Origin: a virus
Taxonomy: Duplodnaviria > Caudoviricetes
Reading direction: 5' to 3' (one strand)
DNA length: 64,000 bases
IMG/VR virus record: IMGVR_UViG_3300033121_001938
Location: 902 to 64,901 of that record
Of the stretch, positions 7,201 through 30,108 are shown piece after piece. The position numbers and the translations under genes are program-made. Numbering within the stretch: position 1 is the stretch's first letter; each line of letters opens with the position of its first letter. The notes under the pieces are model-generated. The model was not told where the DNA came from and ran no database searches. It saw only the letters and a program-made list of their open reading frames with translations.

Positions 7201-7410
7201 TTAATTAGTTAAAGTATGAGGTACATTTTGGTTATATGTTACTATATGAGTTGTTGTTCTACCCATATTAGTACTATTACAATTTATAATAATTGAATGA
7301 TTTTTAACAGTTTCAATTTTTTCTTTTAAAATATCCCAATTTGGAGAATGTCCTTTAGGGATTGCTTCTAAAAATCCTCTAAGCCATATTAAAAAATCAT
7401 TTTGTGTCAT
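7201..7410 (-). CDS. hypothetical protein
   Basis: Likely start MTQNDFLIWLRGF at 7410 (track start 7443). Confidence 0.55.
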   Translation of the reverse strand: MTQNDFLIWLRGFLEAIPKGHSPNWDILKEKIETVKNHSIIINCNSTNMGRTTTHIVTYNQNVPHTLTN

Positions 7411-8083
7411 TTTGTTTGTTTTTATATTCCCAAATAAAACCAAAAGCTGTTTTTTGCTTTTTTAAACAAACAGTAATAATATCTGTTTGCCTATTTGGTT
7501 TACCTATACTAATACAAGCTTTGGTAGCACTATCAAATTCATTAATTTTATTCATATCTAAATCATATTGAATTATTGAGCGTGATCTTTTTCCTTTATT
7601 AGCTTCAGATTTTTTTAATTTTGTTATTTTATTATCTTTTTTTCTATTTTTATTAGGAATATATAAACCTTTATTTTCTAAATAATTTTTAACTGTATTA
7701 TATGTTAAATCTAATTTTTTACATATATTATATATTCCATTAGTTTTATATAATTTTTCAATTTTACCCTTCGGTATAAGTTTTAATTTATAATTATTTC
7801 CAAATTTGTTCTTACTTATTTTTAATCTTGATTTTTTGCTTAGTTTAGTGGGTCCACCTCCTCCCTTATTTTTATTTTTTAATTTAAATCCTTTTGATTC
7901 ATATAAAGAAATATAATATTTTTCTCTAATTTTCCATTCACTACTTTTAACTAATTCTAATATTTTTATTTTAATATTATTTCCATATGTTTTTTTATGT
8001 TGACAATATCTTATATTAATATTATTACATTTACCTATGTAGAATGGTGTATTATTTTTTTCTAAAACATAAATTATTAACAT
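7397..8083 (-). mobile_element. Free-standing GIY-YIG homing endonuclease with C-terminal NUMOD1-like HTH
   Basis: IYVL...FYIG, RE..YI, NKNKGGGG, and C-term IIQYDL...EFDSAT...KQKTAFGFIW. Confidence 0.85.
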
Positions 8084-8113
8084 TTTTATTATTTACAATA
8101 AATATGTACAAAT

Positions 8114-8156
8114 TCAATTTTCTTTAGTTTCGGACTCAATTTTCTTTAGTTTCGGA
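8114..8156. repeat. 21-bp exact tandem direct repeat (22-bp period) at the 3' end of the GT gene
   Basis: TCAATTTTCTTTAGTTTCGGA at 8114-8134 and 8136-8156. Confidence 0.9.
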
Positions 8157-9427
8157 AGATCGATACGTTTAAGTTGTGGCAATTTAAGTTCAACTGGTTT
8201 TGGAACTTTTTCATCTAATACTTTCAATAATTTTTCTCCCATTTTTTCTAAGGTGAATTCAATACGAGAACGATAAGATTGTCTTTTAGCTCCATCTATA
8301 AATTTCTTATAATTACTATAAACATCTGACATTACAATAGAAGCCATTTTATAATCAACAGTAAACCAACCACTTTCAGCAAGTAACATATTAGGTACTA
8401 CTGATGTTGGGTGTAATTGAGTTATTTGACCTGGTAAAAATATACACATTTCAGGTGATAAAAAATCTAAATGACCACTCCATCCAGAAACAATTATTGG
8501 TTTTTGACTAATAGAAGCTTCTAATAATGGTCTTCCAAATCCTTCTCCTTTAGTAAATGAAATATGTGCTTTTACTTTTGGATGATTATATAATTGATTT
8601 ATTTCTTCATCAGTTAATTCTCCATGTAATAAATAAATGTTTGGTAGATCTTTATCTCCTACCATTTTTCTTATTTGTTGTATTTTATTTAATACATCAT
8701 CTCTATCCATTATAGAATATGTACCTCCTGATGTTTTAAGAATTAATCCAACATTTTTACCTTTAAATGTTTCTAAAAATGTTTTAATTAACATCCCAAC
8801 ATCTTTCCTATCTTGTCCTATTTCACCTTGTAGCCAATGACCTACAAATAAAAAATTAAAATCCTCATTAATACTATTCAAAATATCATTCAAATCATTA
8901 TCTATTACAGATTCTAATTTTTTGTAAATATTATTATCAATTCCTTCAAATAATACTTCAATAGGTTTTTCTAATTTTATGTTATTAATTAATTGGTTTG
9001 TTTGTCTATCTCTTTCTTCAAATGTAGAATTTTCAAATACTTTTTTAGAATGTTCAGAAGAAACAAATGTTAAATCCATTCTGTTAACACCTTGTACCCA
9101 ACTTGCATCACATATTGTAGTTTCAATACCTGCTGTAATACCAATATTTAACTTTCCTACTTGTTGAAATTCATTTGGTACTGTAATTTGTATCCAGACA
9201 TCAGGTTGTTTTGGTAATTGAGGAATAGGTAGAATACAATCCATTATTTGTTTATGTTCAGGATTTTCTTGTTTTAGAAAACCGAATGGTGTAGCCCCCC
9301 ATCGTTGAGGGAGAATTTTAACATCATATTTTCCTGATTGAATAAGACATTTTACTATATCACGACTACGGGCTCCATACCCTGAAAAGGTATCAATTGG
9401 ACAACTTATTACTACTAATGGTTTCAT
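8114..9427 (-). CDS. GT-B fold glycosyltransferase (family 4-like)
   Basis: SGYGARSR, FLFVGHW...DRKD and KGEGFGRPLLEA. Confidence 0.85.
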   Translation of the reverse strand: MKPLVVISCPIDTFSGYGARSRDIVKCLIQSGKYDVKILPQRWGATPFGFLKQENPEHKQIMDCILPIPQLPKQPDVWIQITVPNEFQQVGKLNIGITAGIETTICDASWVQGVNRMDLTFVSSEHSKKVFENSTFEERDRQTNQLINNIKLEKPIEVLFEGIDNNIYKKLESVIDNDLNDILNSINEDFNFLFVGHWLQGEIGQDRKDVGMLIKTFLETFKGKNVGLILKTSGGTYSIMDRDDVLNKIQQIRKMVGDKDLPNIYLLHGELTDEEINQLYNHPKVKAHISFTKGEGFGRPLLEASISQKPIIVSGWSGHLDFLSPEMCIFLPGQITQLHPTSVVPNMLLAESGWFTVDYKMASIVMSDVYSNYKKFIDGAKRQSYRSRIEFTLEKMGEKLLKVLDEKVPKPVELKLPQLKRIDLPKLKKIESETKEN

Positions 9428-15621: not shown

Positions 15622-15924
15622 TCATTTATTAATTTCATTTATTAAATTAGATACTATTATTAAATCTCCAGATACTTTTTTTCCAAATTTTTTCTCAAGT
15701 TTATTTTGTATTCCAAAATAATCAATATGGCAAAATATATTATCTCCTAATTTAAATTGTTCCATTTGATGATTTAATAATTCCTTAAATCTTTTATCTG
15801 CTTCATTCTCATTCAAAATATCTATATCACTGTATAGTTTTTCTGACATCTTCTTGTTATCATTATACCATTCCAACCTTTCAGGACTATTACCTTTTGT
15901 CATTATTTTATCAAAATTACTCAT
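15622..15924 (-). CDS. hypothetical protein
   Basis: Packed ORF. Confidence 0.5.
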   Translation of the reverse strand: MSNFDKIMTKGNSPERLEWYNDNKKMSEKLYSDIDILNENEADKRFKELLNHQMEQFKLGDNIFCHIDYFGIQNKLEKKFGKKVSGDLIIVSNLINEINK

Positions 15925-16529
15925 ATTATTTCTTTAAACTTCCAAATGAAACCAAATGCTGTTTTTTGTTTATTATTACAAACTGCACTTATATCTCCTA
16001 CTCTAATACCTGTTTGTCTAAATGCATCGTTTATTGATATAAATTCATTAACTTTTTTACCTTTTAAATCATATTGTATTACAGGTTTCTTAGTTGGATG
16101 AGAATCACTTATGTTTTGTCTCCATTCTTTTGATTTTACTCTTCCTCTAGCAGAATCACTTTTCTTTTGCTTAGTTTTTTTAGAATCTTTTTTTCCTAAA
16201 TGTGATTTACTCATCTTTTGTTTTGTTACTTCAGACATAATTCCTGTTCCGTTTGGTTCTCCTCCCGCTTTTAATACCAATCCATTAGGATGTAAAGCAT
16301 TAAAATAATATGTCCAATATAATTCACGTTCATTTAATTGTTCCCTTAAACATTCCTCTATTGATTCAAAGGTATGATTTTCGGCTCCATATTTCTTTAT
16401 TGAATTATGTACTAATATACATTTACAAGTATGTAAATTTTTATGAGCTAACATTCTTCTATGAATGTTTATACTTTGTCCAATATATATTTTACCTTTT
16501 GGGTTTGTTATTTTATAAATACCTATCAT
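15921..16529 (-). mobile_element. Free-standing GIY-YIG homing endonuclease (NUMOD3 + NUMOD1-like)
   Basis: MIGIYKITNP...IYIGQS, ERELYW, SEVTKQKMS and KQKTAFGFIWK; start moved to 16529. Confidence 0.9.
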
Positions 16530-16569
16530 ACCAATAAATATAATAAAATATTTATCCCCGTCAGGGAAT

Positions 16570-17496
16570 TTAAAGAACCTTATTCTTCGTAGTATCAAGT
16601 ATTCGAGCAACGCAAGCCATCATATTTATTTCCTTATCCGGAACTACTCCAGCACGCCAAATGAAATCATCTAATATTACAGATAATTGAGCATCATTAC
16701 CATAACTAAATTCAGATAAATGTTCAAACATATATCTAAAAGCGATTTGAAAATCGTCTACTTGAGTGTCTGCTACAAGTTGTCTAATTTGGTACCAAGC
16801 GTTTTTATCGCGCTTAACCAATATTTCAACTAATTGTTTACACCAATTATCGTTTATTTTAATATTAGATAATTTATTATTAATTGTATTTTGTTGTAAT
16901 ACTTTAATAATTGAACGAATATCAGGATAGAATTGTTTAATTATTGTTACTACATCATTAATATCATATTTTACTTTTTCAACATCAAGTATTTTTGTAC
17001 AAATATGTTTGGCAACTTCACCTTTTGAGGGTGGAATTAAAGTATGAATTTCACAACGAGAAGTGAGAGGTTCAATTAAACGTTCTAAATAATTACAAGT
17101 TAAAATAAAACGAGTATTTATTGAATGTTCCTCAATTATATTACGCAATGCTGCTTGAGCAGGTTGAGTAAGAAAATCAGCTTCATCTAATATCACAATT
17201 TTAATTGGATGAAATGTAGCTGATGATGCAAAACCTTTTACTTTTTCTCTAATTGTGTCAATACCATTTTCATCACTAGCATTCAAATATCTATAATCGC
17301 ATTTCAAATTTCCAACAACTAATTTTGCTAATGTTGTTTTTCCTGTTCCAGCAGGACCATTAAATATAAAATGGGGAATATCGTTTTGTTTAAGACATTC
17401 TGCTATACGATTTTTTACTTCATCATTCCCTATATAATCTTCTAATTTTTTAGAACGATACTTTTCAATCCAAAGAGTATGTTGTTTATTTGTCAT
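16570..17496 (-). CDS. Clamp loader large subunit (T4 gp44/RFC-like AAA+)
   Basis: LWIEKYR, GPAGTGKTT, NASDENGID, ILDEAD and FILTCN. Confidence 0.95.
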   Translation of the reverse strand: MTNKQHTLWIEKYRSKKLEDYIGNDEVKNRIAECLKQNDIPHFIFNGPAGTGKTTLAKLVVGNLKCDYRYLNASDENGIDTIREKVKGFASSATFHPIKIVILDEADFLTQPAQAALRNIIEEHSINTRFILTCNYLERLIEPLTSRCEIHTLIPPSKGEVAKHICTKILDVEKVKYDINDVVTIIKQFYPDIRSIIKVLQQNTINNKLSNIKINDNWCKQLVEILVKRDKNAWYQIRQLVADTQVDDFQIAFRYMFEHLSEFSYGNDAQLSVILDDFIWRAGVVPDKEINMMACVARILDTTKNKVL

Positions 17497-20784: not shown

Positions 20785-23367
20785 TTAAAATTTAAAGAAT
20801 TTATTTATTTTAGCATTGAGCACAGGAAAATCTTTTCCCCATCCTATATCATCATAAACACCTGTTAATTTATTTAATAATACTGAATTAAATGCTGTTT
20901 CTCTATCAACATATTTATCTATAAATTCAATAATAAATTCAGGATCATCATAACCATTTAAACCAATTACTTCAATATTATAGGGATTTGGTTTTAAATT
21001 AACATATTTCATTTTATCCCCTTCAGTAAATAAATTATATTTCTTTTCTAATTTTTTAAATTTAATTAGATCGTTATATATTATTGCTGCTTTTGTATTT
21101 ATAGGAGCTTTACTTCTAAATTCACTAAATATTTCTCCAGGTGAAGGACGTTTAGCAATATAAGATTTAATTTGTTTAACTCCTGTTGGTTTAGCTAATT
21201 CTCCCCAAGGTAAACTTTCTAATGAAGATCTAAAATTAACAATTTTTTTGTCTATTTCAGATTTAGGTTTACCAACCATTATTTCAGTTAATAGTTCTTT
21301 ACCAAACTTCTTATATAAAGGAGGCATATTTGATTTCATCAAATCTAATCCTACCATTTCCATTTGTTCTACCGCTACACCTTCTTTATTTACAATTAAC
21401 ATAGCATAACGACGTTTACCAGCAAAATATCCTCTTTCTAATACAACTTCTTGTTTTAATTCAAAATGATGTTCTCTATTTTTTAAATTAAATGCCTTAG
21501 TAGCAAATTCAGATATAAATTTATTTGAAGCAGTTTGAATTTCATTAGCTAATTCTAAAATACATTTAATGCATTCTTCTTTATTATGAATATCTATACC
21601 TTTTTGTATTAATAAATCTTTTACATGAATAAACAATGAATCAGTATCTGCAGTTATAACATAATCTATATCTTTAGTTTTTAATTTTTTATTTATCCAT
21701 TTATTTACAAATATAATTGCTTCTTGATCTAAACGTTGACCAGTTAAAGTAATAGCAGATGAAATCATTTTATGTCCATCTGTATATCTCCATCCATTAA
21801 TTGCATAACATCCATAAACGTCGTTTAATTTAATTTTATAAGCATGTTGTAATCTATTATAAAATTCACCCTTTATTTTATCACCTTTTTTATATGCTTC
21901 CTTCATTAATTTTTTATACTGAGTGCGTTTATTAAACCAATCTGATAATACTTCACAAACTACAGATGATTTATCTGTTCTAAATATTGCACCTGATGCT
22001 GCTACTATCCAATTATTATCTTCTATTAATTTAATTATTTTACCTATTTTAACTTGGGTTTTTGATGTTGTAAAATTTTCATTTAGTTTTTCAATAGAAA
22101 TATATTCATTAGGATCCATTTTTAATAATTCAGAATAAGTCCAATGATCATCATATTTTCCATCATTAATAATTCTTCCTACTAATGTTTCTATTCCTAT
22201 ATTTAATGAACGAATTATTGAGGGGTATAGTGAAGTAAAATCAAGATCAATTATCCATTCGTATAATCCAGGAACTGGGTCTTTTAAATAACCACCAGCA
22301 TAATCATCATTATTAGTATCCTTTAATAAAGGATTTATTGTTGTTGGTTTATTTGGTGAAACTATACCTCTACGTTTAAGATAAGTTAATATAGCTCCAT
22401 CATTTAAAACAGTTGATAAATATATTCTTTCATATGGAGTATGACATAAATGACAAATATTAATTGTCAAATCAATAAATTTAAATTTATCTTCTAATAA
22501 AATAATAATTTCAACGTCACGTAAATTATATCTTATAAATTTATTTAAATCATCCTTAAATAATTTATCTAAACTTCCATCATATTCAATTTTATTTAAA
22601 TTAAGATATTTTTCTCCTATATCATTTAATTTATAAGATGGTTCTTGTTTTGGAAAGAATTTTTTAACCAAAAGCATATAGTCAAGATGATTAATTCCTC
22701 CTATTTCTACAGGACTTGTTTTATTCCATTCTGTAATATTAATTTTTCGTATCGGAGATAAACGAATAGCATATTCTTCTCCTAATATATTTAATATTCT
22801 ATAATAAAGATAAGGAATATCAAAAAATCCACTATTCCATCCTGTTATAATGGTTGGGTCTATTTCTTCCCAAATATCAAGAAATTTTAAAATTAATTCT
22901 TTTTCATCTAAACAAGGAATAATTCGTTCATTAACTGTTTCTTTATACTCTAATTTTTTTTCTTCATCTAATATTAAACAAGTATACATTTTTAATTTAG
23001 CATCATACAATGAAATTGAAGTTATTTTCATTGGAGCTGCTTTAATATATTCTGGAGTAAGAGTCCCACCAATAACACATTCTATGTCTATACAAGCAAT
23101 GTTATGATTTTTAGGAGCATCATCACTATCTTTATATAAATCAATTAATACACGAGTACATTGATCGATATCCTTTTCATATAATGAAAAATCATTCCAA
23201 TCATACTTTTTTATAGCATTAGCATATTTACCATCTAATGTAGGAAATTCTCCATTAGGGTTAATTCTATATAATTCAGGAATATATTTAAAATCCAACC
23301 ATCCTTTTTCATCATCCCTTAAAAAGTAGGTATAGGATTTTCTATCATAATATATCGATTGATACAT
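20785..23367 (-). CDS. Family B DNA polymerase (T4 gp43-like)
   Basis: DIE exonuclease I, GWNSGFFD, YNLRD, DFTSLYPS, KIKLNDVYG and ADTDS. Confidence 0.97.
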   Translation of the reverse strand: MYQSIYYDRKSYTYFLRDDEKGWLDFKYIPELYRINPNGEFPTLDGKYANAIKKYDWNDFSLYEKDIDQCTRVLIDLYKDSDDAPKNHNIACIDIECVIGGTLTPEYIKAAPMKITSISLYDAKLKMYTCLILDEEKKLEYKETVNERIIPCLDEKELILKFLDIWEEIDPTIITGWNSGFFDIPYLYYRILNILGEEYAIRLSPIRKINITEWNKTSPVEIGGINHLDYMLLVKKFFPKQEPSYKLNDIGEKYLNLNKIEYDGSLDKLFKDDLNKFIRYNLRDVEIIILLEDKFKFIDLTINICHLCHTPYERIYLSTVLNDGAILTYLKRRGIVSPNKPTTINPLLKDTNNDDYAGGYLKDPVPGLYEWIIDLDFTSLYPSIIRSLNIGIETLVGRIINDGKYDDHWTYSELLKMDPNEYISIEKLNENFTTSKTQVKIGKIIKLIEDNNWIVAASGAIFRTDKSSVVCEVLSDWFNKRTQYKKLMKEAYKKGDKIKGEFYNRLQHAYKIKLNDVYGCYAINGWRYTDGHKMISSAITLTGQRLDQEAIIFVNKWINKKLKTKDIDYVITADTDSLFIHVKDLLIQKGIDIHNKEECIKCILELANEIQTASNKFISEFATKAFNLKNREHHFELKQEVVLERGYFAGKRRYAMLIVNKEGVAVEQMEMVGLDLMKSNMPPLYKKFGKELLTEIMVGKPKSEIDKKIVNFRSSLESLPWGELAKPTGVKQIKSYIAKRPSPGEIFSEFRSKAPINTKAAIIYNDLIKFKKLEKKYNLFTEGDKMKYVNLKPNPYNIEVIGLNGYDDPEFIIEFIDKYVDRETAFNSVLLNKLTGVYDDIGWGKDFPVLNAKINKFFKF

Positions 23368-23370
23368 TAA

Positions 23371-23916
23371 TTATTTATTTTGTCTTTGTTTATCATTTTG
23401 CCACTGACCATTATATAATTCAGCAGGTTCACATTCATAAAAATAAATTTGAGCAACACGAGCATTTTCTTCTATGAATATTGTTCTTGTTACTATCATT
23501 ATTGTTCCCAGAAATTCTGTTTCAAAACCAGGATCAAACACAGGGCTATTTATTACAGCCCCATTACGATAAAGTGAAGAACGTTGTTTAATAAAAGCAA
23601 CTCTATTATTAGGTAATTTACAACCCTCATTGAATGTTATATCATATGTATTAGGATATAATAACCAACCATTTATCCCGTCTAAATTCTGAATAGGATA
23701 TGGTTGATAAGTTGTAAGTTTAGTTTTATCTTTTAATACTCTTCCTATTTCTACTTCACTTGATACAAATCCTCCTACCTCAGAATGATCTATTTTACGT
23801 TCACCTACAATATTTACTTGTTTAAGAGATAAGTCGTATCCTACTTGAGCAGGTTTACCATGTGAATGTTCTAATTTAAGTAATTCTTCGTTTAAAATTT
23901 GTTTTGCGTTTAACAT
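23371..23916 (-). CDS. Trimeric dUTPase/dCTP deaminase family protein
   Basis: GYDL, QRSSLYRNG, FDPGF and RVAQI. Confidence 0.85.
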   Translation of the reverse strand: MLNAKQILNEELLKLEHSHGKPAQVGYDLSLKQVNIVGERKIDHSEVGGFVSSEVEIGRVLKDKTKLTTYQPYPIQNLDGINGWLLYPNTYDITFNEGCKLPNNRVAFIKQRSSLYRNGAVINSPVFDPGFETEFLGTIMIVTRTIFIEENARVAQIYFYECEPAELYNGQWQNDKQRQNK

Positions 23917-23922
23917 ATTATA

Positions 23923-24660
23923 TCATTTATATCCTTCCATATTTAATTTAATCATTTCAAGTACTTCAGTTTTTGCTGTCTTAGTGTGATCAGCAAATAC
24001 ACCTGAGGGATGTGCAGTTACCATTGAAGCACCTATATGTTTTACTCCTCTACAACCAACACAATTATGATAAGAATGTATCATAACATAAACTCCTTGA
24101 TTTCCTTCAACCACTTTATCTACTGCATTATGTATCGCCATTGTAAGTTGTTCCTGGATAGCGCCTCTACGAGCAAAATGTTCTACAATTCGATTTAATT
24201 TAGATAAACCAATTACTTGTTTATTTTCACCTGGAATATATGCAATGTGAGCTTTACCTAAGATAGCTTGATGGTGATGAGAACACATACTAATTATTGG
24301 AATATCTCTTTCTAAAACAATACCAGCATATTCATCTGATGGAAATGATGTAATATCTGTTGGTAAATTATATCTACCTTCCCATAAGTCATTTACATAA
24401 GCCTTAGATACACGATAAGGTGTTTCCATACTATTAGGATCCTCTTGCCAATTAACTCCTAATGCTCTTAAAAACTCACCATATGCTTTAGCAGCATTTT
24501 TAATTATTTCTTCTTTTTCTTCTTTATTTAATGAACGATGTTCACCTTTAGCTATTAAACCAGCTAATTGAATTGACATTCCATTTGCAAAACCTTTTTC
24601 AGCTAATTCTAGTTCCTCAGATCCTGTAATTTTTCTTCTTTTATTCTCCATATTATTCAA
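23923..24660 (-). CDS. folE: GTP cyclohydrolase I
   Basis: TPYRV, SMCSHH, IGLSKLNRIV, IQEQL and HNCVGCRG. Confidence 0.95.
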   Translation of the reverse strand: MNNMENKRRKITGSEELELAEKGFANGMSIQLAGLIAKGEHRSLNKEEKEEIIKNAAKAYGEFLRALGVNWQEDPNSMETPYRVSKAYVNDLWEGRYNLPTDITSFPSDEYAGIVLERDIPIISMCSHHHQAILGKAHIAYIPGENKQVIGLSKLNRIVEHFARRGAIQEQLTMAIHNAVDKVVEGNQGVYVMIHSYHNCVGCRGVKHIGASMVTAHPSGVFADHTKTAKTEVLEMIKLNMEGYK

Positions 24661-24976
24661 GGTGTTTTAGTGCATTTTCAAAATATTGGATTGCATTATT
24701 ATAATTTTCTTCAGATTCGTCTTCCAACCAAATATCTTGTTTAAAAATAGATTTGTCAAATTTAGGAGCAGAAATAAAAAACCCAGCAACATTATCTTTC
24801 ATTCCATATTCTAATTCAATTTCAACTCCTTTCTCCTTACCCATTTCAATAAATTTCAAACCTATTTTAGGATATTGTTTTAATGTATTATATTTATAAT
24901 CCATTTTAATATATTCTAAATAAGCATTAGCCATATCCTTAACACTACTTAATTTAATTTCTTTCATATTATACAT
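24653..24976 (-). CDS. hypothetical protein
   Basis: Packed between queE and folE. Confidence 0.55.
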   Translation of the reverse strand: MYNMKEIKLSSVKDMANAYLEYIKMDYKYNTLKQYPKIGLKFIEMGKEKGVEIELEYGMKDNVAGFFISAPKFDKSIFKQDIWLEDESEENYNNAIQYFENALKHLE

Positions 24977-25802
24977 TTAATGTTTTATTCCAAGCAGCAA
25001 TATGTAATCTTGTCAACCCTCTAAAACGATATTTTTTAGCCATTTCTAAACAGAAACGAGTACGTTCTTCAAAATCGGAAGCATCATCTAATCCAGGCAT
25101 GCAAACAATATTTTTTAAAGGTATTTTGAATGGTTCCACAAAATCTCTAAATATTTCCTTTACATCATCCTCTGTACTAATAACAAATTTAAATTGATAA
25201 TTTGGATGTTCCATTATACGCTTAATAGCTTCTGGAACTATACGTTTATTTTCTTCTTGACCTGAGTTGTTTAATTTAGGGGAACAGTTAATTTGATCTA
25301 AAATCCAAAATAATTCATCTTCTATATAAATTGTACCATTCGTTTCTATTTCATAATACGGTAAAACCACTGATTCTTCTCTATCTATCCAATGATTGGT
25401 AAAATTAACAATTGCTTCTTGATGACCTTTTATTGTTGGTTCACCGCCTGTCCATATAATATGAATATTGCCATTTTTGATATCATCGTAGATGTCTTGT
25501 TCTTTCCAACGATCAATTAAGTATTGGAATTCTTTATCCTCACCTCTCCATGCCCACTGCGAGAGAGAATCACATGTCCATGTTGCCTTACCTTCAGCGT
25601 GTAAATCACCTACTATTATTTCACCATCTTCTAGTAGTTTTTCTTTAACTATCTGATTCATGTGTTTTCTAGATAATCCACAGCTTAGATTGCATATTCC
25701 TAATCTTACAAAGTAAGAGGGTACACCTGTACTAATCCCTTCCCCTTGCACGCTATAAAAGTCTGAAGATAGTAATAAACGGTCTGGTCTAATTGTTGAC
25801 AT
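24969..25802 (-). CDS. queE: 7-carboxy-7-deazaguanine synthase (radical SAM)
   Basis: FYSVQGEG, FVRLGICNLSC...TWTCD, TGGEP, IETNG, CSPK and RLHI. Confidence 0.93.
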   Translation of the reverse strand: MSTIRPDRLLLSSDFYSVQGEGISTGVPSYFVRLGICNLSCGLSRKHMNQIVKEKLLEDGEIIVGDLHAEGKATWTCDSLSQWAWRGEDKEFQYLIDRWKEQDIYDDIKNGNIHIIWTGGEPTIKGHQEAIVNFTNHWIDREESVVLPYYEIETNGTIYIEDELFWILDQINCSPKLNNSGQEENKRIVPEAIKRIMEHPNYQFKFVISTEDDVKEIFRDFVEPFKIPLKNIVCMPGLDDASDFEERTRFCLEMAKKYRFRGLTRLHIAAWNKTLNV

Positions 25803-25804
25803 AT

Positions 25805-26491
25805 TTACTTTAATTTATTATTTGTGAAATCATAATTATTATCATTTAAATCTTCTTTCTTCTTCCACATAAAGCCACCTGCTGTTTTGGTTTTTCCTCT
25901 TAATGCTTCAGTCATCTTAATGCCTGTTATTTTTTTAGCTTCAATATACGAAGGATATTCGGCCACCAAAAATCCTTCTAAATTAAATTGCATTATTGGT
26001 TTTTTTAGTTTGTTATTTCTTTCTGGGGTGAATATTGAGTCTATTCTTATTCCTTTTTTGCTTTGGCTTATTTTTTGCCCTGTTTCTTTAGAAATAGTTC
26101 TTTTATTGCGTGATATTTTCATTTTTAATTTAGATTCTTCAGAAAATATTCTACCTTTATTAGATACAGACATTTTACGTTTTGTTTCTTCACTTCTAAA
26201 ACCACCTTTACCATCTTTTAATTGACAGAATAACATATTTTCCCAACCTAATAAATCAATATAATATTGTTTCCAATATAATTCACGCTCATCTAGTTCT
26301 TTAATATTACATTCTTCAATAATCTCAAATATATGGTTATCATAACCGTATTTTAAAATAGATCTAGATATTTTAGGTTGATTGTGGTTAACCCAATCTT
26401 TATACTTTTTCCATCTTTGTTCTATATTAGTAGATTGTCCAATATATACTCTATTAGTCGGGCTTGTTATTTTATAAATTCCTGTTTTCAT
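25805..26491 (-). mobile_element. Free-standing GIY-YIG homing endonuclease (NUMOD3 + NUMOD1-like)
   Basis: MKTGIYKITSP...VYIGQS, ERELYW, SEETKRKMS and KTKTAGGFMWK; start moved to 26491. Confidence 0.9.
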
Positions 26492-26494
26492 ATA

Positions 26495-26535
26495 GTCGCA
26501 TTTCCAATAAATATATGAAAATTTGGAAAAGCGAC
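26495..26535 (-). promoter_or_regulatory. Stem-loop covering the endonuclease translation start, with the ATATTTAT motif in its loop
   Basis: GTCGCTTTTCCAA / TTGGAAATGCGAC pair at 12 of 13 positions around a 15-nt loop; the 3' arm ends 3 nt before the ATG. Confidence 0.7.
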
Positions 26536-26554
26536 GATAATTCAATAGAAGTTA

Positions 26555-26704
26555 CTATTTGTCATTCAACTGTTGAATAACGTCTTGAATACTTCTCATC
26601 CAAGCACCCATAATATCCCTGCCAAAGAGTATATTACATATTGACATATCAGCGTCCCAAATTTCTTTAGGTACTTCAACCTTAATGATTCTTTTATTTT
26701 TCAT
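26555..26704 (-). CDS. small hypothetical protein (49 aa)
   Basis: Manual translation MKNKRIIKVEVPKEIWD...QLNDK; overlaps the 3' end of the upstream ORF. Confidence 0.45.
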   Translation of the reverse strand: MKNKRIIKVEVPKEIWDADMSICNILFGRDIMGAWMRSIQDVIQQLNDK

Positions 26705-26900
26705 GTTCTTTATTTATTTTACCTAAGTAATACATGCTAGTTAATATTTTTGGTATATCATCCATATCACTACTATAAAATAATTCTTCTGCTAACATGT
26801 TGATTGTTTCTATTTCTAAACCAACTAATTGAGTTTGTCCATCAAAAGAATTGTAGATTTCATAATATCTTTTTGCAATTGTTTCTAAATCATTGTTCAT
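26694..26900 (-). CDS. hypothetical protein
   Basis: Packed ORF. Confidence 0.5.
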   Translation of the reverse strand: MNNDLETIAKRYYEIYNSFDGQTQLVGLEIETINMLAEELFYSSDMDDIPKILTSMYYLGKINKEHEK

Positions 26901-27172
26901 AACTTTATTTTTCTTTCTAGTGTAATTGGTTTTTGAGAAACGATTATATTCTTTTTTATACCTTCAAAAATTGCAATATCATCATAAGGACCTATGATAT
27001 ACAACATTTCAGTTTTATCTTTATTTAATTCTACAGTCAAAGTCTGATCAGGATGATGTGAGTCATAGAATATATTAATACCATCAACTTCACCTAATTT
27101 AATAACACCTTCCCACTTCTTATCAGGTTTGATAAATTCTGGTCCTTTACAATCATACTTACTGTCTATCAT
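26897..27172 (-). CDS. hypothetical protein
   Basis: Packed ORF. Confidence 0.5.
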   Translation of the reverse strand: MIDSKYDCKGPEFIKPDKKWEGVIKLGEVDGINIFYDSHHPDQTLTVELNKDKTEMLYIIGPYDDIAIFEGIKKNIIVSQKPITLERKIKL

Positions 27173-27186
27173 ATTTATTTTATTTG

Positions 27187-27263
27187 AAACCGTGGCTGAA
27201 CTTGAATCGTTGTCGACCTCCTTCCCTTGTCGGAAGTTGTGCTACTTTTACACCACACGGTTT
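27187..27263 (-). tRNA. Degenerate tRNA-like element (possibly decayed tRNA-Val GAC)
   Basis: Acceptor stem AAACCGTG/CACGGTTT, D-arm GTGT-AAAAGTA-GCAC, CTTCC-GACAAG-GGAAG arm with a 6-nt loop, and TTCAAGT T-loop with a broken T-stem. Confidence 0.45.
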
Positions 27264-27269
27264 AGTTTA

Positions 27270-27335
27270 TTATTTATCTTGTACACTATAAAAATCACTT
27301 GATATTAATAATTTATTTGGATCTATTTTACTCAT
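27270..27335 (-). pseudogene. Stranded 5' remnant of queE (21 codons)
   Basis: MSKIDPNKLLISSDFYSVQDK* versus the intact queE start MSTIRPDRLLLSSDFYSVQGE (14/19 identical); ATGA-coupled to the upstream ORF. Confidence 0.85.
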
Positions 27336-27625
27336 AATTCTATATCGTTTTCTTCAGCTTGGTTATTTTGTCTTTGTTCTTCAAAATATTGATCTATTTG
27401 ATCACTCCATGGTTGATTTAATTCATCCAATTTATCTGCTATTTCTCTTAATATATAACTTGCCCAACAACCCCACCAATTATCTTTTAAAGGCCAGAAA
27501 TAGAAAAATCCATCATCATCAACTATAAAATCACCAATATATTTACCATTCTCACCCCAAAATACTTTTAGATGGGTTTTAGTTATTTCTTCTAATGTAA
27601 GATAATATTGAAAATATTTTATCAT
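27332..27625 (-). CDS. hypothetical protein
   Basis: Packed ORF. Confidence 0.55.
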   Translation of the reverse strand: MIKYFQYYLTLEEITKTHLKVFWGENGKYIGDFIVDDDGFFYFWPLKDNWWGCWASYILREIADKLDELNQPWSDQIDQYFEEQRQNNQAEENDIEL

Positions 27626-27840
27626 ACCTTTTCTTTGAATTTAGAACGACGTACTGCTTTTTTAGTTAATTTCTGTTTCTTTTCAACTTTTTCTTCTACA
27701 GAAATAGTAGGTGTCACTCTTGTTACTGCTTTCCATTCCGATTTTGGAACGTAAGACCAAGTTGAACCTACTTTACGTTGTGCTACAATATCTTCTACTC
27801 TACGTACTTCGTTTGTTTTGTTGTTTTTAATACACTTCAT
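27622..27840 (-). CDS. small basic hypothetical protein
   Basis: MKCIK...WSYVPKSEWK. Confidence 0.6.
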   Translation of the reverse strand: MKCIKNNKTNEVRRVEDIVAQRKVGSTWSYVPKSEWKAVTRVTPTISVEEKVEKKQKLTKKAVRRSKFKEKV

Positions 27841-27858
27841 AGGTTAATCCTCCATGTT

Positions 27859-27990
27859 TTAATGTTTAAATAATAGTTTTCTTATATAGATTAATATATT
27901 TTGAATGTTTTGACTTTCAACAAATAAAGACATAAAACTAAAATGTCCATCACCACATAAACCTAATGCATGTTGGATTGATTCTATCAT
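27859..27990 (-). CDS. small hypothetical protein (43 aa)
   Basis: Manual translation MIESIQHALGLCGDGHFSF...LLFKH. Confidence 0.45.
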   Translation of the reverse strand: MIESIQHALGLCGDGHFSFMSLFVESQNIQNILIYIRKLLFKH

Positions 27991-28007
27991 AACTTTTATT
28001 TTTAAAA

Positions 28008-28040
28008 AACCAATTTAATCTTACGGGATTAGAATTGGTT
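28008..28040 (-). terminator. Intrinsic terminator after queC
   Basis: AACCAATT(C)TAATC-CCGTAA-GATTA-AATTGGTT hairpin followed by a T run. Confidence 0.65.
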
Positions 28041-28063
28041 GTATTGGTGTTTTCATATGTAAA

Positions 28064-28990
28064 TTATTTATGATTATCCAATAAGTTTTGAACATAATTT
28101 TTAACTAATTCCCATGTTACTGGTCCTGTTTCATCAGCATATTCTACTGGATCAGGTCTTCCTAATTTTATAAATGCTTCTATACGTTCTACCGATGCTG
28201 CTGATTTGTAATCTGAGTACCATTTATATTTGTTTAATTTAATTCCATTTTGGTTTTCATTAAAAGTTGGGATTCCAATTTTTTTAATTCCTTTATATTC
28301 ATAATCAGCAAATCTAATTGGTTTGTAACTTGTATTAGTACGTTTAAATACTTCATCAAAATCTAAACCTAATTTTTTACAATCGTTTTCTGCTTCTTTT
28401 AATATATCAAATTTATTAACATATAAATAAGGAGTTAATATATTTACTTTTTCTGCTCCCCAATTACCTTTTACAAAAGCTGCAAAATCCATATCTCTAA
28501 AATCCTGCCTACAATCGGGATAAATTGCATGATCACCTGCATGTATTCCCATTGCAATAACACATTCATCTCCTGTTTTATTAGCAATTGATAATGCTAC
28601 TGCTTGTATAATTGAACTAAAGATCTTATTACGATTAGGTACTACTGTATCCTTCATATTTTCCTGTTCATAATGACCTTCAGGGACTTCTTCTCCACCT
28701 TCAACTAAAGTTGAGTTTAATAATGAGGATAAACCATCTATTGTTATTATTCGATGATTTATTATATTTAAATGTTCTCTTTTTTCCTTTGGAATAGCAT
28801 CAAGGCCTACTTTTTCTAAGAAAGAAAAATTAATATATTCAACTAATTCTTTAGCTCGTTCTAACTCAACTTTATGTTTTTGACCATAATCAAAAGATAA
28901 AGCTGTTACTTTATATCCTTGAGCTAATAATAGTAATAATAAACTACTACTATCCATCCCTCCACTAAGTGATAATACTGCTTGTTTCAT
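28064..28990 (-). CDS. queC: 7-cyano-7-deazaguanine synthase
   Basis: SLSGGMDSS, FDYGQKH, VPNRN and HAGDHAIYPDC. Confidence 0.93.
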   Translation of the reverse strand: MKQAVLSLSGGMDSSSLLLLLLAQGYKVTALSFDYGQKHKVELERAKELVEYINFSFLEKVGLDAIPKEKREHLNIINHRIITIDGLSSLLNSTLVEGGEEVPEGHYEQENMKDTVVPNRNKIFSSIIQAVALSIANKTGDECVIAMGIHAGDHAIYPDCRQDFRDMDFAAFVKGNWGAEKVNILTPYLYVNKFDILKEAENDCKKLGLDFDEVFKRTNTSYKPIRFADYEYKGIKKIGIPTFNENQNGIKLNKYKWYSDYKSAASVERIEAFIKLGRPDPVEYADETGPVTWELVKNYVQNLLDNHK

Positions 28991-28991
28991 T

Positions 28992-29339
28992 TTAATCTTT
29001 TTTTAATCCAAATCCATGTTCGTTTTCAGATAAAGCAAACTCTATCATTATCATTGCATCTTGCATTAATAATGAATTTATTTCTTTTAATTCTTCTTCT
29101 GCTTCATTTAAACGTTCAATATAATAATTATCAATTAATTTAGTTGTAGCAAAAAATTCATCAAGGAATTCTTTAGGATAAGTAAAAACATATCCATTAT
29201 ATTTTGGATTATTTATTTGTTTTAATTTAGTGGGAATATTTTTTCTGATTTTAGCATATTCATTTACTAATCGTCCTAATTTAGGACCTGCAGCATGACC
29301 TAAATAATCATAAAGGGATAAAAAATTGTAATTGTTCAT
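28992..29339 (-). CDS. hypothetical protein between dpdA-like and queC
   Basis: SLYDYLGHAAG...NPKYNGYVFTYP. Confidence 0.55.
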   Translation of the reverse strand: MNNYNFLSLYDYLGHAAGPKLGRLVNEYAKIRKNIPTKLKQINNPKYNGYVFTYPKEFLDEFFATTKLIDNYYIERLNEAEEELKEINSLLMQDAMIMIEFALSENEHGFGLKKD

Positions 29340-29343
29340 AATA

Positions 29344-30108
29344 TTATTTTAATAATTTTCTAAATAGAGATACGTTAAATATAATAGTTTCCTTTTGCCC
29401 TTCTAAATTTTTCTCCATTATATCTTCTAATATTGCTTTGGGTTTATCATAAGGTAATTCAGGATCTAATTTAACCCCTATTGCTCCACATGAATTAATA
29501 TATTTAAAATCCTTATAAACTTGAAATTCTCTCCAATCAGATGATCCTAATAAATGATGATAAACATTTTCATTTAAAATATTATTTTCAGCTAATTTTC
29601 TTATAAATTCTATTCTACCGTATTTTTGGGCTTTTAATTTATCATATTCAGGATACATTTTAATATATGCTTCACTTGAATGATTAAATGCAATATATTT
29701 GTAACCTAAATCAATTAATGTTTGATAACATATTATTAATTCATGAAGATCTTTTCCTTGACACACAGCCATTATATTAGTATAATATTCATTTTTTAAT
29801 GCCTTTTGATAAGTATTTACCCATGTTTTAGCATTACGTAATGTTGTTGAAGAATCATTCCATTCATCAGGTACAATAAAAATATTTGGTTGAATTAAAT
29901 CTATTAATTCAAGTAGTTCACTATTTGAATAATGGAACCCTTCAAATAATCCATTATCTAATATGATAAATCTTCCATCTTTTTTAGCTTGGAGAAAGTA
30001 CTCTTTATATTCTTGATGTTTCAAAAAATTAGGTAAACAATAATCAAAATCATTCAATTCATAACCGTGTTTTAGTAATGAAAGAGGCAATTCATGTGAA
30101 ATTTTCAT
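29344..30108 (-). CDS. TGT-fold DNA 7-deazaguanine transglycosylase-like protein (DpdA-like)
   Basis: ILDNGLFE, IVPDEW, VCQG and HHLLG; sits among queC, queD, queE and folE. Confidence 0.7.
   Translation of the reverse strand: MKISHELPLSLLKHGYELNDFDYCLPNFLKHQEYKEYFLQAKKDGRFIILDNGLFEGFHYSNSELLELIDLIQPNIFIVPDEWNDSSTTLRNAKTWVNTYQKALKNEYYTNIMAVCQGKDLHELIICYQTLIDLGYKYIAFNHSSEAYIKMYPEYDKLKAQKYGRIEFIRKLAENNILNENVYHHLLGSSDWREFQVYKDFKYINSCGAIGVKLDPELPYDKPKAILEDIMEKNLEGQKETIIFNVSLFRKLLK

Follow-up and report, generated by a model that had tools for sequence, protein, structure and literature searches.

The subject of this analysis is the start of queE in an uncultured T4-like phage (Duplodnaviria; Caudoviricetes), known from metagenome contigs only, together with a candidate homing element that appears to have entered the gene there. 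The window analyzed is a stretch of 64,000 nucleotides (nt) corresponding to positions 902 to 64,901 of the IMG/VR viral contig IMGVR_UViG_3300033121_001938, which is 64.9 kb long and, by estimate, about one third complete. All the genes between 20 and 30 kb of the window are on the minus strand. Read 5′ to 3′, the locus comprises queC (28064–28990), small open reading frames (ORFs), an ORF of 97 amino acids (aa), an ORF of 21 codons, a non-coding stretch of 80 nt, ORFs of 91, 68 and 49 aa (o91, o68 and o49), a GIY-YIG gene and queE. Downstream of queE there are a 107-aa ORF, folE, a dCTP-deaminase-like gene and a T4-gp43-like PolB gene. The features considered here are summarized in Table 1.

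Table 1. Features of the queE locus in the window, in the order of transcription. Codes beginning with L denote loci of related phages; a slash within a sequence marks a junction.
Feature	Position	Strand	Remarks
97-aa backbone gene	27332..27625	-	Stop overlaps the stump ATG; marks the native queE start position
Stranded native queE 5′ end (outer stump)	27270..27335	-	Codons 1–19 + G at 27278–27335, class-1 junction, two foreign codons, stop
Structured RNA-like element, about 77 nt	27187..27263	-	Directly after the class-1 junction; copies at L003:4494-4570, L091:2443-2519 and L119 about 795-875
Cargo ORF o91, 91 aa	26897..27172	-	Also in the cassettes of L003, L091 and L119
Cargo ORF o68, 68 aa	26694..26900	-	No relatives among the loci
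Cargo ORF o49, 49 aa	26555..26704	-	In L118, away from queE, located after o91; in L002, downstream of queE
Inner stump, 12 nt	26545..26556	-	AGTAACTTCTAT; queE codons 12–16 minus 3 nt; ends at the class-2 junction TAT/TGAATTA
Endonuclease leader	26492..26544	-	Includes a hairpin whose loop contains ATATTTATT and whose end is 3 nt from the ATG
GIY-A, predicted free-standing I-TevI-like GIY-YIG homing endonuclease, 228 aa	25805..26491	-	Pfam, PHROG and PDB matches
Replacement queE 5′ end (codons 1–19 + G), re-coded, with its own ATG	25745..25802	-	Rare bases; GIY-A-linked
Intact, mosaic queE, 277 aa	24969..25802	-	phrog_2076; Burkholderia multivorans QueE 4NJG

The product of the intact gene matched phrog_2076 at 2e-39 over residues 7–274 and gave no Pfam match at 0.01. 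The structure of B. multivorans QueE (PDB 4NJG) aligned from residue 13, and in the matches to 4NJG, 6NHL and 5TGS residues 13–45 were aligned to the N-terminal F-x-S/T-x-QGEG motif. The gene is thus predicted, from these matches, to encode QueE, the 7-carboxy-7-deazaguanine synthase. The 21-codon ORF is translated as MSKIDPNKLLISSDFYSVQDK followed by a stop, and its ATG overlaps the stop of the 97-aa ORF as ATGA. Compared with the start of the window queE (MSTIRPDRLLLSSDFYSVQ), 14 of 19 residues are identical, although only 36 of 57 nt are; among the first 19 codons, 7 are identical, 7 differ synonymously and 5 non-synonymously. The resemblance goes far beyond chance. The ATGA coupling and the heavily differing codons behind a shared peptide had both been pointed out in the initial annotation of this DNA, and both were borne out, as was its statement that the GIY-YIG gene stops 2 nt before the queE ATG (TAA at 25805–25807).

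The two copies of the queE start were compared with those of related phages. A protein-guided scan of IMG/VR with QueE yielded 229 related loci, of which 80 (71–81% identity) were kept; further ones, including one GenBank metagenome contig, came from scans with the endonucleases, o91 and DNA patterns, so that filled and empty sites were drawn from about 100 related phage contigs. In most of about 80 of these contigs the queE N-terminus has the stump peptide, unchanged or almost so. Relatives without an endonuclease had been expected to have an uninterrupted queE of the MSKIDP type, and this is what was found in 73 loci, where queE starts with MSKID/NPNKLLISSDFYSVQGEG or close variants. More precisely, the queE of these 73 loci, which have no endonuclease upstream, begins MSKIDPNKLLISSDFYSVQGEG or a near variant, and the window stump reads exactly MSKIDPNKLLISSDFYSVQGEG. 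At the nucleotide level, the stump matches the best native alleles at 51 of 58 positions, versus 37 of 58 for the queE of the window itself.

The distinction between native and foreign starts was made with rare bases, defined as those present in less than 5% of endonuclease-free queE alleles. In the first 60 nt, the endonuclease-free alleles have a mean of 0.52 rare bases (0 or 1 in 69 of the 73 loci), and the 13 distinct endonuclease-linked alleles have 3–16. The stumps have none before their breakpoint, the window stump having none in its first 58 nt when compared with the 73 endonuclease-free alleles. There is at most one native-like copy of the 5′ end per locus. From these comparisons, the 21-codon ORF is the stranded original 5′ end of queE and represents a native allele, and the end now in use is foreign and diverged. 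The proposal that the old 5′ end had been left stranded was in this way upheld.

Concerning the replacement start, that of the window contains 9 rare bases, clustered at nt 8–31. The working queE starts MSTIRPDRLLL, and the starts MSTIRPDRLLL and MSKIRPDRLLL occur only with GIY-A upstream (window, L058, L068 and L119). These four loci have in common the start M-S/P-T/K-IRPDRLLLSS. Outside the GIY-A loci, the replacement 5′ end is shared, in part, with L093 only. The variant start travels with GIY-A, as would be expected from the earlier claim that a diverged replacement allele is linked to the endonuclease.

The GIY-YIG gene, named GIY-A, starts at the ATG at 26491 and not at the TTG at 26545. 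Its product matched Pfam PF01541 (GIY-YIG) at 1.1e-8, above the cut-off, the PHROG homing endonuclease family phrog_314 over residues 19–234, and the catalytic domain of I-TevI (PDB 1MK0/1LN0) at 1e-5, in alignment with I-TevI residues 1–78. The GIY, YIG, ..QRW.. and ..ERELYW.. motifs are readable in the sequence, and C-terminal to the catalytic domain there is a weak NUMOD3 match (19.0 bits versus a cut-off of 20.4). Copies of GIY-A are 84–92% identical in L058, L068 and L119 and 71% identical in L120, in all cases directly upstream of queE. A second enzyme, GIY-B, with a SegE-type GIY-YIG domain and several helix-turn-helix domains, occupies the same slot in L003, L036/L037, L090–L094, L079, L080, L096 and L099; its closest members accompany a mostly synonymous re-coding of queE codons 2–19 plus the change Y16F. 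In L037 the GIY-B gene is at 2000–2860, and the rare bases of GIY-B alleles include nt 27, 30 and 47. That GIY-A and GIY-B could be one diverged family was considered and rejected, as they do not align beyond the GIY-YIG catalytic motif. Their leaders are nevertheless related: both begin with TGAATTA and end in a hairpin, its loop containing ATATTTATT, that stops 3 nt short of the start codon. A group I intron or an intein was also rejected: no Rfam family, group I introns included, was matched at E ≤ 1 across 23000–30000, queE downstream is a complete gene that has an ATG of its own, and the stump runs into a stop. The site is polymorphic, with 73 empty loci versus the filled ones, and the shared tract extends into a mosaic queE.

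Stumps were seen in endonuclease-bearing loci only, and they end at two fixed points. In class 1 (window, L119, L003, L091 and L036/L037) the stump ends after ...GTnCAAG, i.e., codon 19 plus 1 nt (nt 58). In class 2 it ends after codon 16 (nt 48; ...TTCTAT/TGAATTA) and joins the leader directly; the full form (codons 1–16) is present in L090 and L092, and decayed forms with internal deletions in L058/L068 (MKDKLLISSDFY followed by a stop) and L093. Relatives with the remnant and no endonuclease, which would have spoken against the invasion, were looked for among the loci, and none carries a stump without an endonuclease. The exact point of entry was obtained from L037 and the endonuclease-free L032, which are 96–97% identical across the upstream 76-aa gene and the stump, the homology ending exactly after GTCCAAG. 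The insertion point is therefore known to the nucleotide (codon 19 + 1 nt), in agreement with the annotated insertion near codon 19, and this empty/filled pair places the junction after CAAG. The first 60 nt of the working queE of L037 are 57% identical to L032 and 93% to L003, which carries the same endonuclease as L037.

The two classes of junction are combined in the window. Just 5′ of the leader there is, in every class-1 locus (window, L119, L003, L037 and L091), an inner stump of 12 nt, (A)GTAACTTCTAT/TGAATTA, and the cassette is therefore nested. The layout of the window is then: outer stump, structured RNA, three cargo ORFs, inner stump, leader, endonuclease and re-coded queE. An IMG/VR search with the junction-plus-leader pattern was specific to queE-endonuclease loci; the only two other matches, L103 and L104, were rejected as further cassettes, being AT-rich chance matches without queE or endonuclease. 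It was also considered whether TTCTAT/TGAATTA could be a generic endonuclease leader. This was rejected, since the leaders of the other two GIY-YIG genes of the window have no TTCTAT and full-length stumps precede the junction in L090 and L092.

The inner stump is at the same time the left edge of the tract common to the window and L058/L068. There, at the inner junction (about 26550), their identity rises from about 45% to 88–95% and remains so across the endonuclease gene and some 300 nt at the start of queE, falling to 60% at the 3′ end of the gene. Considered by segments, nt 1–300 of queE (about 25500–25802) are closest to L058/L068, while nt 691–834 are closest to L033, L015 and L038 (88–90%), with L058 at 60%. 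The first 300 nt, approximately, were thus co-inherited with GIY-A, and the 3′ part is from a different lineage. The shared tract is a co-conversion tract that left queE mosaic, and the mobile core consists of leader, endonuclease and some 300 nt of queE, with the RNA element and the small ORFs as variable cargo.

The four loci that have the class-1 junction, the RNA-like element and o91 have unrelated upstream flanks (28–41% of the alignment). Their stumps are 75–88% identical, and the DNA just past the junction is 85–94% identical. Therefore, the cassette has moved into different backbones, of which the stump is a part.

Between the stump and queE, the initial annotation had listed a tRNA-like element, three small ORFs and a GIY-YIG gene. 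The ORFs and the GIY-YIG gene were found as described, but the element at 27187–27263 was rejected as a tRNA (0 ARAGORN genes in the window and no Rfam match at E ≤ 1 across 23000–30000), yet it is a conserved structured element. It folds better than shuffled controls (z = -2.8), and among three copies (window, L003 and L091) 21 pairs are kept, 2 of them by compensatory changes; L119 has a fourth copy. An exact 27-mer of the element occurred in cassette loci only, and its position is always directly after a class-1 stump and before o91. A covariance model searched against the window and 24 related loci, among which the known copy-bearing loci were not included, found only the window's own copy. 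With respect to the ORFs, relatives of o91 and o49 occur also in phage contigs without queE nearby, and in L118 the two adjoin each other; the small ORFs thus have the look of passengers that were captured. Other cassettes have small ORFs different from those of the window. In L109:3770-4000 and L111:3770-4000, with no queE nearby, o91 comes directly after an ORF with the C-terminus ...FESAKAAADFLNMNEFSVRWILQGRG...WFYIN, which resembles a homing-endonuclease tail of the DNA-binding kind; o91 may thus move along with endonucleases in many cases.

It is very probable that these loci harbor a homing element that works without splicing, is lodged within codons 1–20 of queE, and comprises the leader, GIY-A and a re-coded start with its own ATG. 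The multi-gene cassette of the initial annotation stood as far as the invasion of queE is concerned; it did not stand as a single unit, the structure being nested and mosaic with the RNA element and small ORFs as variable cargo. In a mixed infection, the enzyme would cut the conserved native queE start (region of the motif SSDFYSVQ/GEG) of phages without the element, and the break would be repaired off the element-bearing genome. The right end would pair with the body of queE, and the left end with the stump of native 5′ sequence kept on the far side of the element. The recipient would so gain a functional queE whose start has ceased to be a target, while the 16–19 codons with which its original gene began would be displaced upstream and form a new stump. 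Events that recurred, or that had homology on one side only, would account for the two stumps nested in the window and for the structured RNA and three small ORFs trapped as cargo, and two unrelated GIY-YIG families would have been swapped into the same slot. What the loci show directly is the anatomy of the cassette, the polymorphism of empty and filled sites, the exact breakpoints, the association of endonuclease and variant allele, and the co-inherited tract. The activity of the enzyme, the position of its cut and the use of the stump as a homology arm are, like the whole scheme, deduced from the arrangement of the loci; the resistance of the new allele is inferred because the variant allele is associated with the endonuclease.

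Some features of the break seem to fit such a scheme. The class-1 break is within the F-x-S-x-QGEG motif of QueE, as aligned to solved QueE structures, and so conserved a motif is hence a durable target. Conserved targets are favored by homing enzymes. Since the 5′ rather than the 3′ end is replaced, the element must bring its own ATG and translation start. I-TevI cleaves at CN^NN/G, at a distance from its binding site (PMC5009752). The class-1 breakpoint CAAG/G fits a motif of this type, and the rare bases of the GIY-A alleles cluster 25–50 nt upstream of it, which would suit a bipartite enzyme.

Several observations weigh against this interpretation. A stump is not obligatory, because none was detectable in L079, L080, L094, L096 and L099 (with GIY-B) or in L120 (with GIY-A). 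In L003 and L119 the stump still has CAAGG and every native base upstream, so that an enzyme recognizing only sequence upstream of its cut would cleave the stump of its own phage; therefore, either the target extends downstream or the cut has been placed wrongly. For the class-2 breakpoint, which follows TAT, a CNNNG motif offers no explanation. An empty-site relative of the window's own backbone was not found in the IMG/VR search with the upstream 97-aa gene. Finally, two orders of the nested events are compatible with these data. The class-2 insertion could have come first, a later repair with one-sided homology having copied upstream genes of the donor, which were then attached at CAAG to a left end that had not been resected. 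It is also possible that the class-1 element came first and a second element entered its queE copy at codon 16, in the manner of the WHO clusters discussed below, the inner stump being then mostly deleted.

Among other explanations, the one that survives best, although improbable, is illegitimate recombination or local duplication, independent of the endonuclease, in the course of modular exchange: the endonuclease would merely sit in a recombination-prone intergenic spot, and the variant start would be a neutral hitch-hiker. The region is indeed highly mosaic, with varied queE neighbors across relatives, the cargo genes occur also elsewhere in related phages, and some endonuclease loci have no stump. 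However, such recombination would not be expected to leave stumps with the endonuclease only, at two exact nucleotides and in at least five unrelated upstream contexts, nor to place the rare bases in the functional copy rather than in the stump, nor to repeat the pattern with two unrelated endonuclease families. Much less credit can be given to the 21-codon ORF being, instead of a dead remnant, a working upstream ORF or leader peptide, retained to couple the cassette genes translationally or to regulate them. In favor of such a role, in all class-1 copies the ATG is kept with its ATGA overlap and a stop comes 1–4 codons past the junction; but ATGA coupling is the native queE arrangement, already present at the empty site of L032, and the two truncation points, the internal deletions in L058/L068 and L093 and the reduction of the inner stump to 12 nt speak against it. 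A chimeric assembly of two strain variants across the repeated queE start, conceivable because the sequence is a metagenome contig, is practically dismissed by the low identity of the copies (36 of 57 nt, too little for a mis-join) and by the recurrence of the layout in L119, L003, L091 and L036/L037, assembled independently and drawn from other samples and a further database.

Returning to the homing element, a broader proposal is made tentatively, with somewhat less confidence in it than against it. It would be the phage counterpart of the WHO elements of yeasts, mirrored to the 5′ end of the gene, in which the stump would be the required homology arm, at least two unrelated GIY-YIG families would contest the slot in an arms race with the queE start, and one-sided repair would ferry captured genes and RNA between unrelated backbones. 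If this were true, it would define in T4-like phages a class of splicing-free homing elements that doubles as a gene-transfer vehicle and drives the mosaic evolution of a DNA-hypermodification gene. A way of life shown by experiment only in yeasts, and described in fungal mitochondria, would be extended to bacteriophages and to the 5′ end of a gene. The natural record at the locus is unusually complete, as it includes empty and filled sites, exact breakpoints, re-coded putative immunity alleles, nested stumps and endonuclease swapping. It provides candidate sites for recognition and cutting by two new GIY-YIG enzymes, relevant to work with Tev-type nuclease domains, and would explain the mosaicism of queE in this phage group, which bears on phylogenies of 7-deazaguanine DNA-modification genes. 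As a lesson for annotation, short ORFs resembling the start of a neighboring gene may be stumps and not genes.

Other observations concern the QueE protein and its surroundings. The radical S-adenosylmethionine cysteines are apparently C37-x3-C41 ... C77 (GICNLSCG ... WTCDS, residues 37–77), with an insert of about 35 residues, and the region of the first Cys alone aligns to B. multivorans QueE. The cysteine motif of the latter is CX14CX2C. The spacing may represent an unusual cluster-binding arrangement common to this phage family. In L020:2529-2762, 1.7 kb downstream of the intact queE, there is a second, diverged partial QueE match (37%, residues 200–277) that may be a displaced 3′ end. The identity of QueE to named phages is only about 34%, and a blastn search with 24600–28100 against 50,697 GenBank phages gave 0 matches. 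The window PolB is 30–35% identical to those of T4-like cyanophages, and related contigs are 160–183 kb long. The 97-aa gene gave no Pfam match, no PHROG match and no relative in IMG/VR.

The window contains further GIY-YIG genes. One of them (15921–16530, minus strand), with the same ATATTTATTGG leader, comes directly after a clamp-loader-like gene (16570–17496). In another place (8084–8170, minus strand), a 437-aa gene (8114–9427) has at its end a direct repeat of 20 nt, CCGAAACTAAAGAAAATTGA-gt-CCGAAACTAAAGAAAATTGA, which immediately precedes the ATATTTATTG leader of a GIY-YIG gene (7397–8083); this repeat may be a second duplication at an endonuclease junction, in this case at the 3′ end of the gene. 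In many relatives, extra GIY-YIG genes or fragments follow folE or queC (L002:8249-9028, L058:4271-5035, L074:7831-8460, L079:8228-8539, L053:4004-4537, L063:4587-4745 and L094:3088-3774), and the 7-deazaguanine cluster is a hot spot for free-standing endonucleases across this phage group. The dCTP-deaminase-like gene matches as two pieces in different frames in L073:8636-9120 and L006:8464-8944, which suggests a frameshift or an interruption.

Concerning known systems, the closest likeness is to the WHO elements of Torulaspora and Lachancea yeasts, in which, once a sensitive allele has been cut, repair brings in both the element and a resistant gene end (Coughlan et al. 2020, PMC7282813; see also the 2026 preprint 10.64898/2026.08.13.744650). 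The old end is pushed outwards and serves later as a homology arm, and repeated homing gives nested fragments and a mosaic host gene (PMC7282813). Both systems have in common a conserved gene entered without splicing, the replacement of one end, the displacement of the old one as a fragment, nesting, and a mosaic gene. They differ in that WHO elements act on the 3′ end of the nuclear gene FBA1, with an intein-derived (HO-like) endonuclease, meiosis and proven cleavage, whereas the queE element acts on the 5′ end of a phage gene, with GIY-YIG enzymes, unrelated cargo genes and an RNA element, and its cleavage is inferred. The papers on WHO elements cite no phage cases.

The mORFs of fungal mitochondria, such as that of Allomyces macrogynus atp6 and the Glomus atp6, atp9, cox2 and nad3 hybrids (PMC3630166), likewise combine an endonuclease ORF (LAGLIDADG or GIY-YIG) with a foreign gene end, the native end being nearby. 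In both, the two copies have low nucleotide and high protein identity (63.5% of nt for Glomus atp6, PMC3630166, versus 63%, 36/57, here). The mORFs are, however, C-terminal, often fused in frame and found in organelle genomes, while the queE element is N-terminal, free-standing, nested and in a phage.

The queE element resembles the seg and mob genes of T4 in having a free-standing GIY-YIG gene beside a conserved target, presence/absence polymorphism, flanking co-conversion and a leader with a hairpin plus promoter. Intronless homing by a free-standing endonuclease of T4 was reportedly described by Belle et al. in 2002. Such homing has been reviewed for SegF, SegG, MobE and SegB (PMC2988022). 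The seg and mob genes sit between genes, whereas the queE element is inserted inside an ORF and supplies a replacement end; displaced gene-end stumps, duplications, remnants or pseudogenes are not mentioned in that review of T4 mobile elements (PMC2988022). With I-TevI, the endonuclease of the T4 td intron, there are in common the catalytic domain of GIY-A and the class-1 breakpoint at a CNNN/G motif; in contrast to I-TevI, GIY-A is not intron-encoded. In the nrdA gene of Aeromonas phage Aeh1, split by mobE (Friedrich et al. 2007, as summarized in PMC2988022), a free-standing endonuclease also lies within a phage metabolic gene that stays functional. According to that summary, however, both pieces of nrdA are used and the protein is assembled from them, whereas in queE one piece is discarded and replaced.

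No published description of homing elements that replace gene ends in phages was found. The kind of element is nevertheless already known, and what is distinctive here is the replacement of a 5′ end, the two GIY-YIG families behind one leader, the nested stumps, the capture of cargo and a DNA-hypermodification gene as the target.

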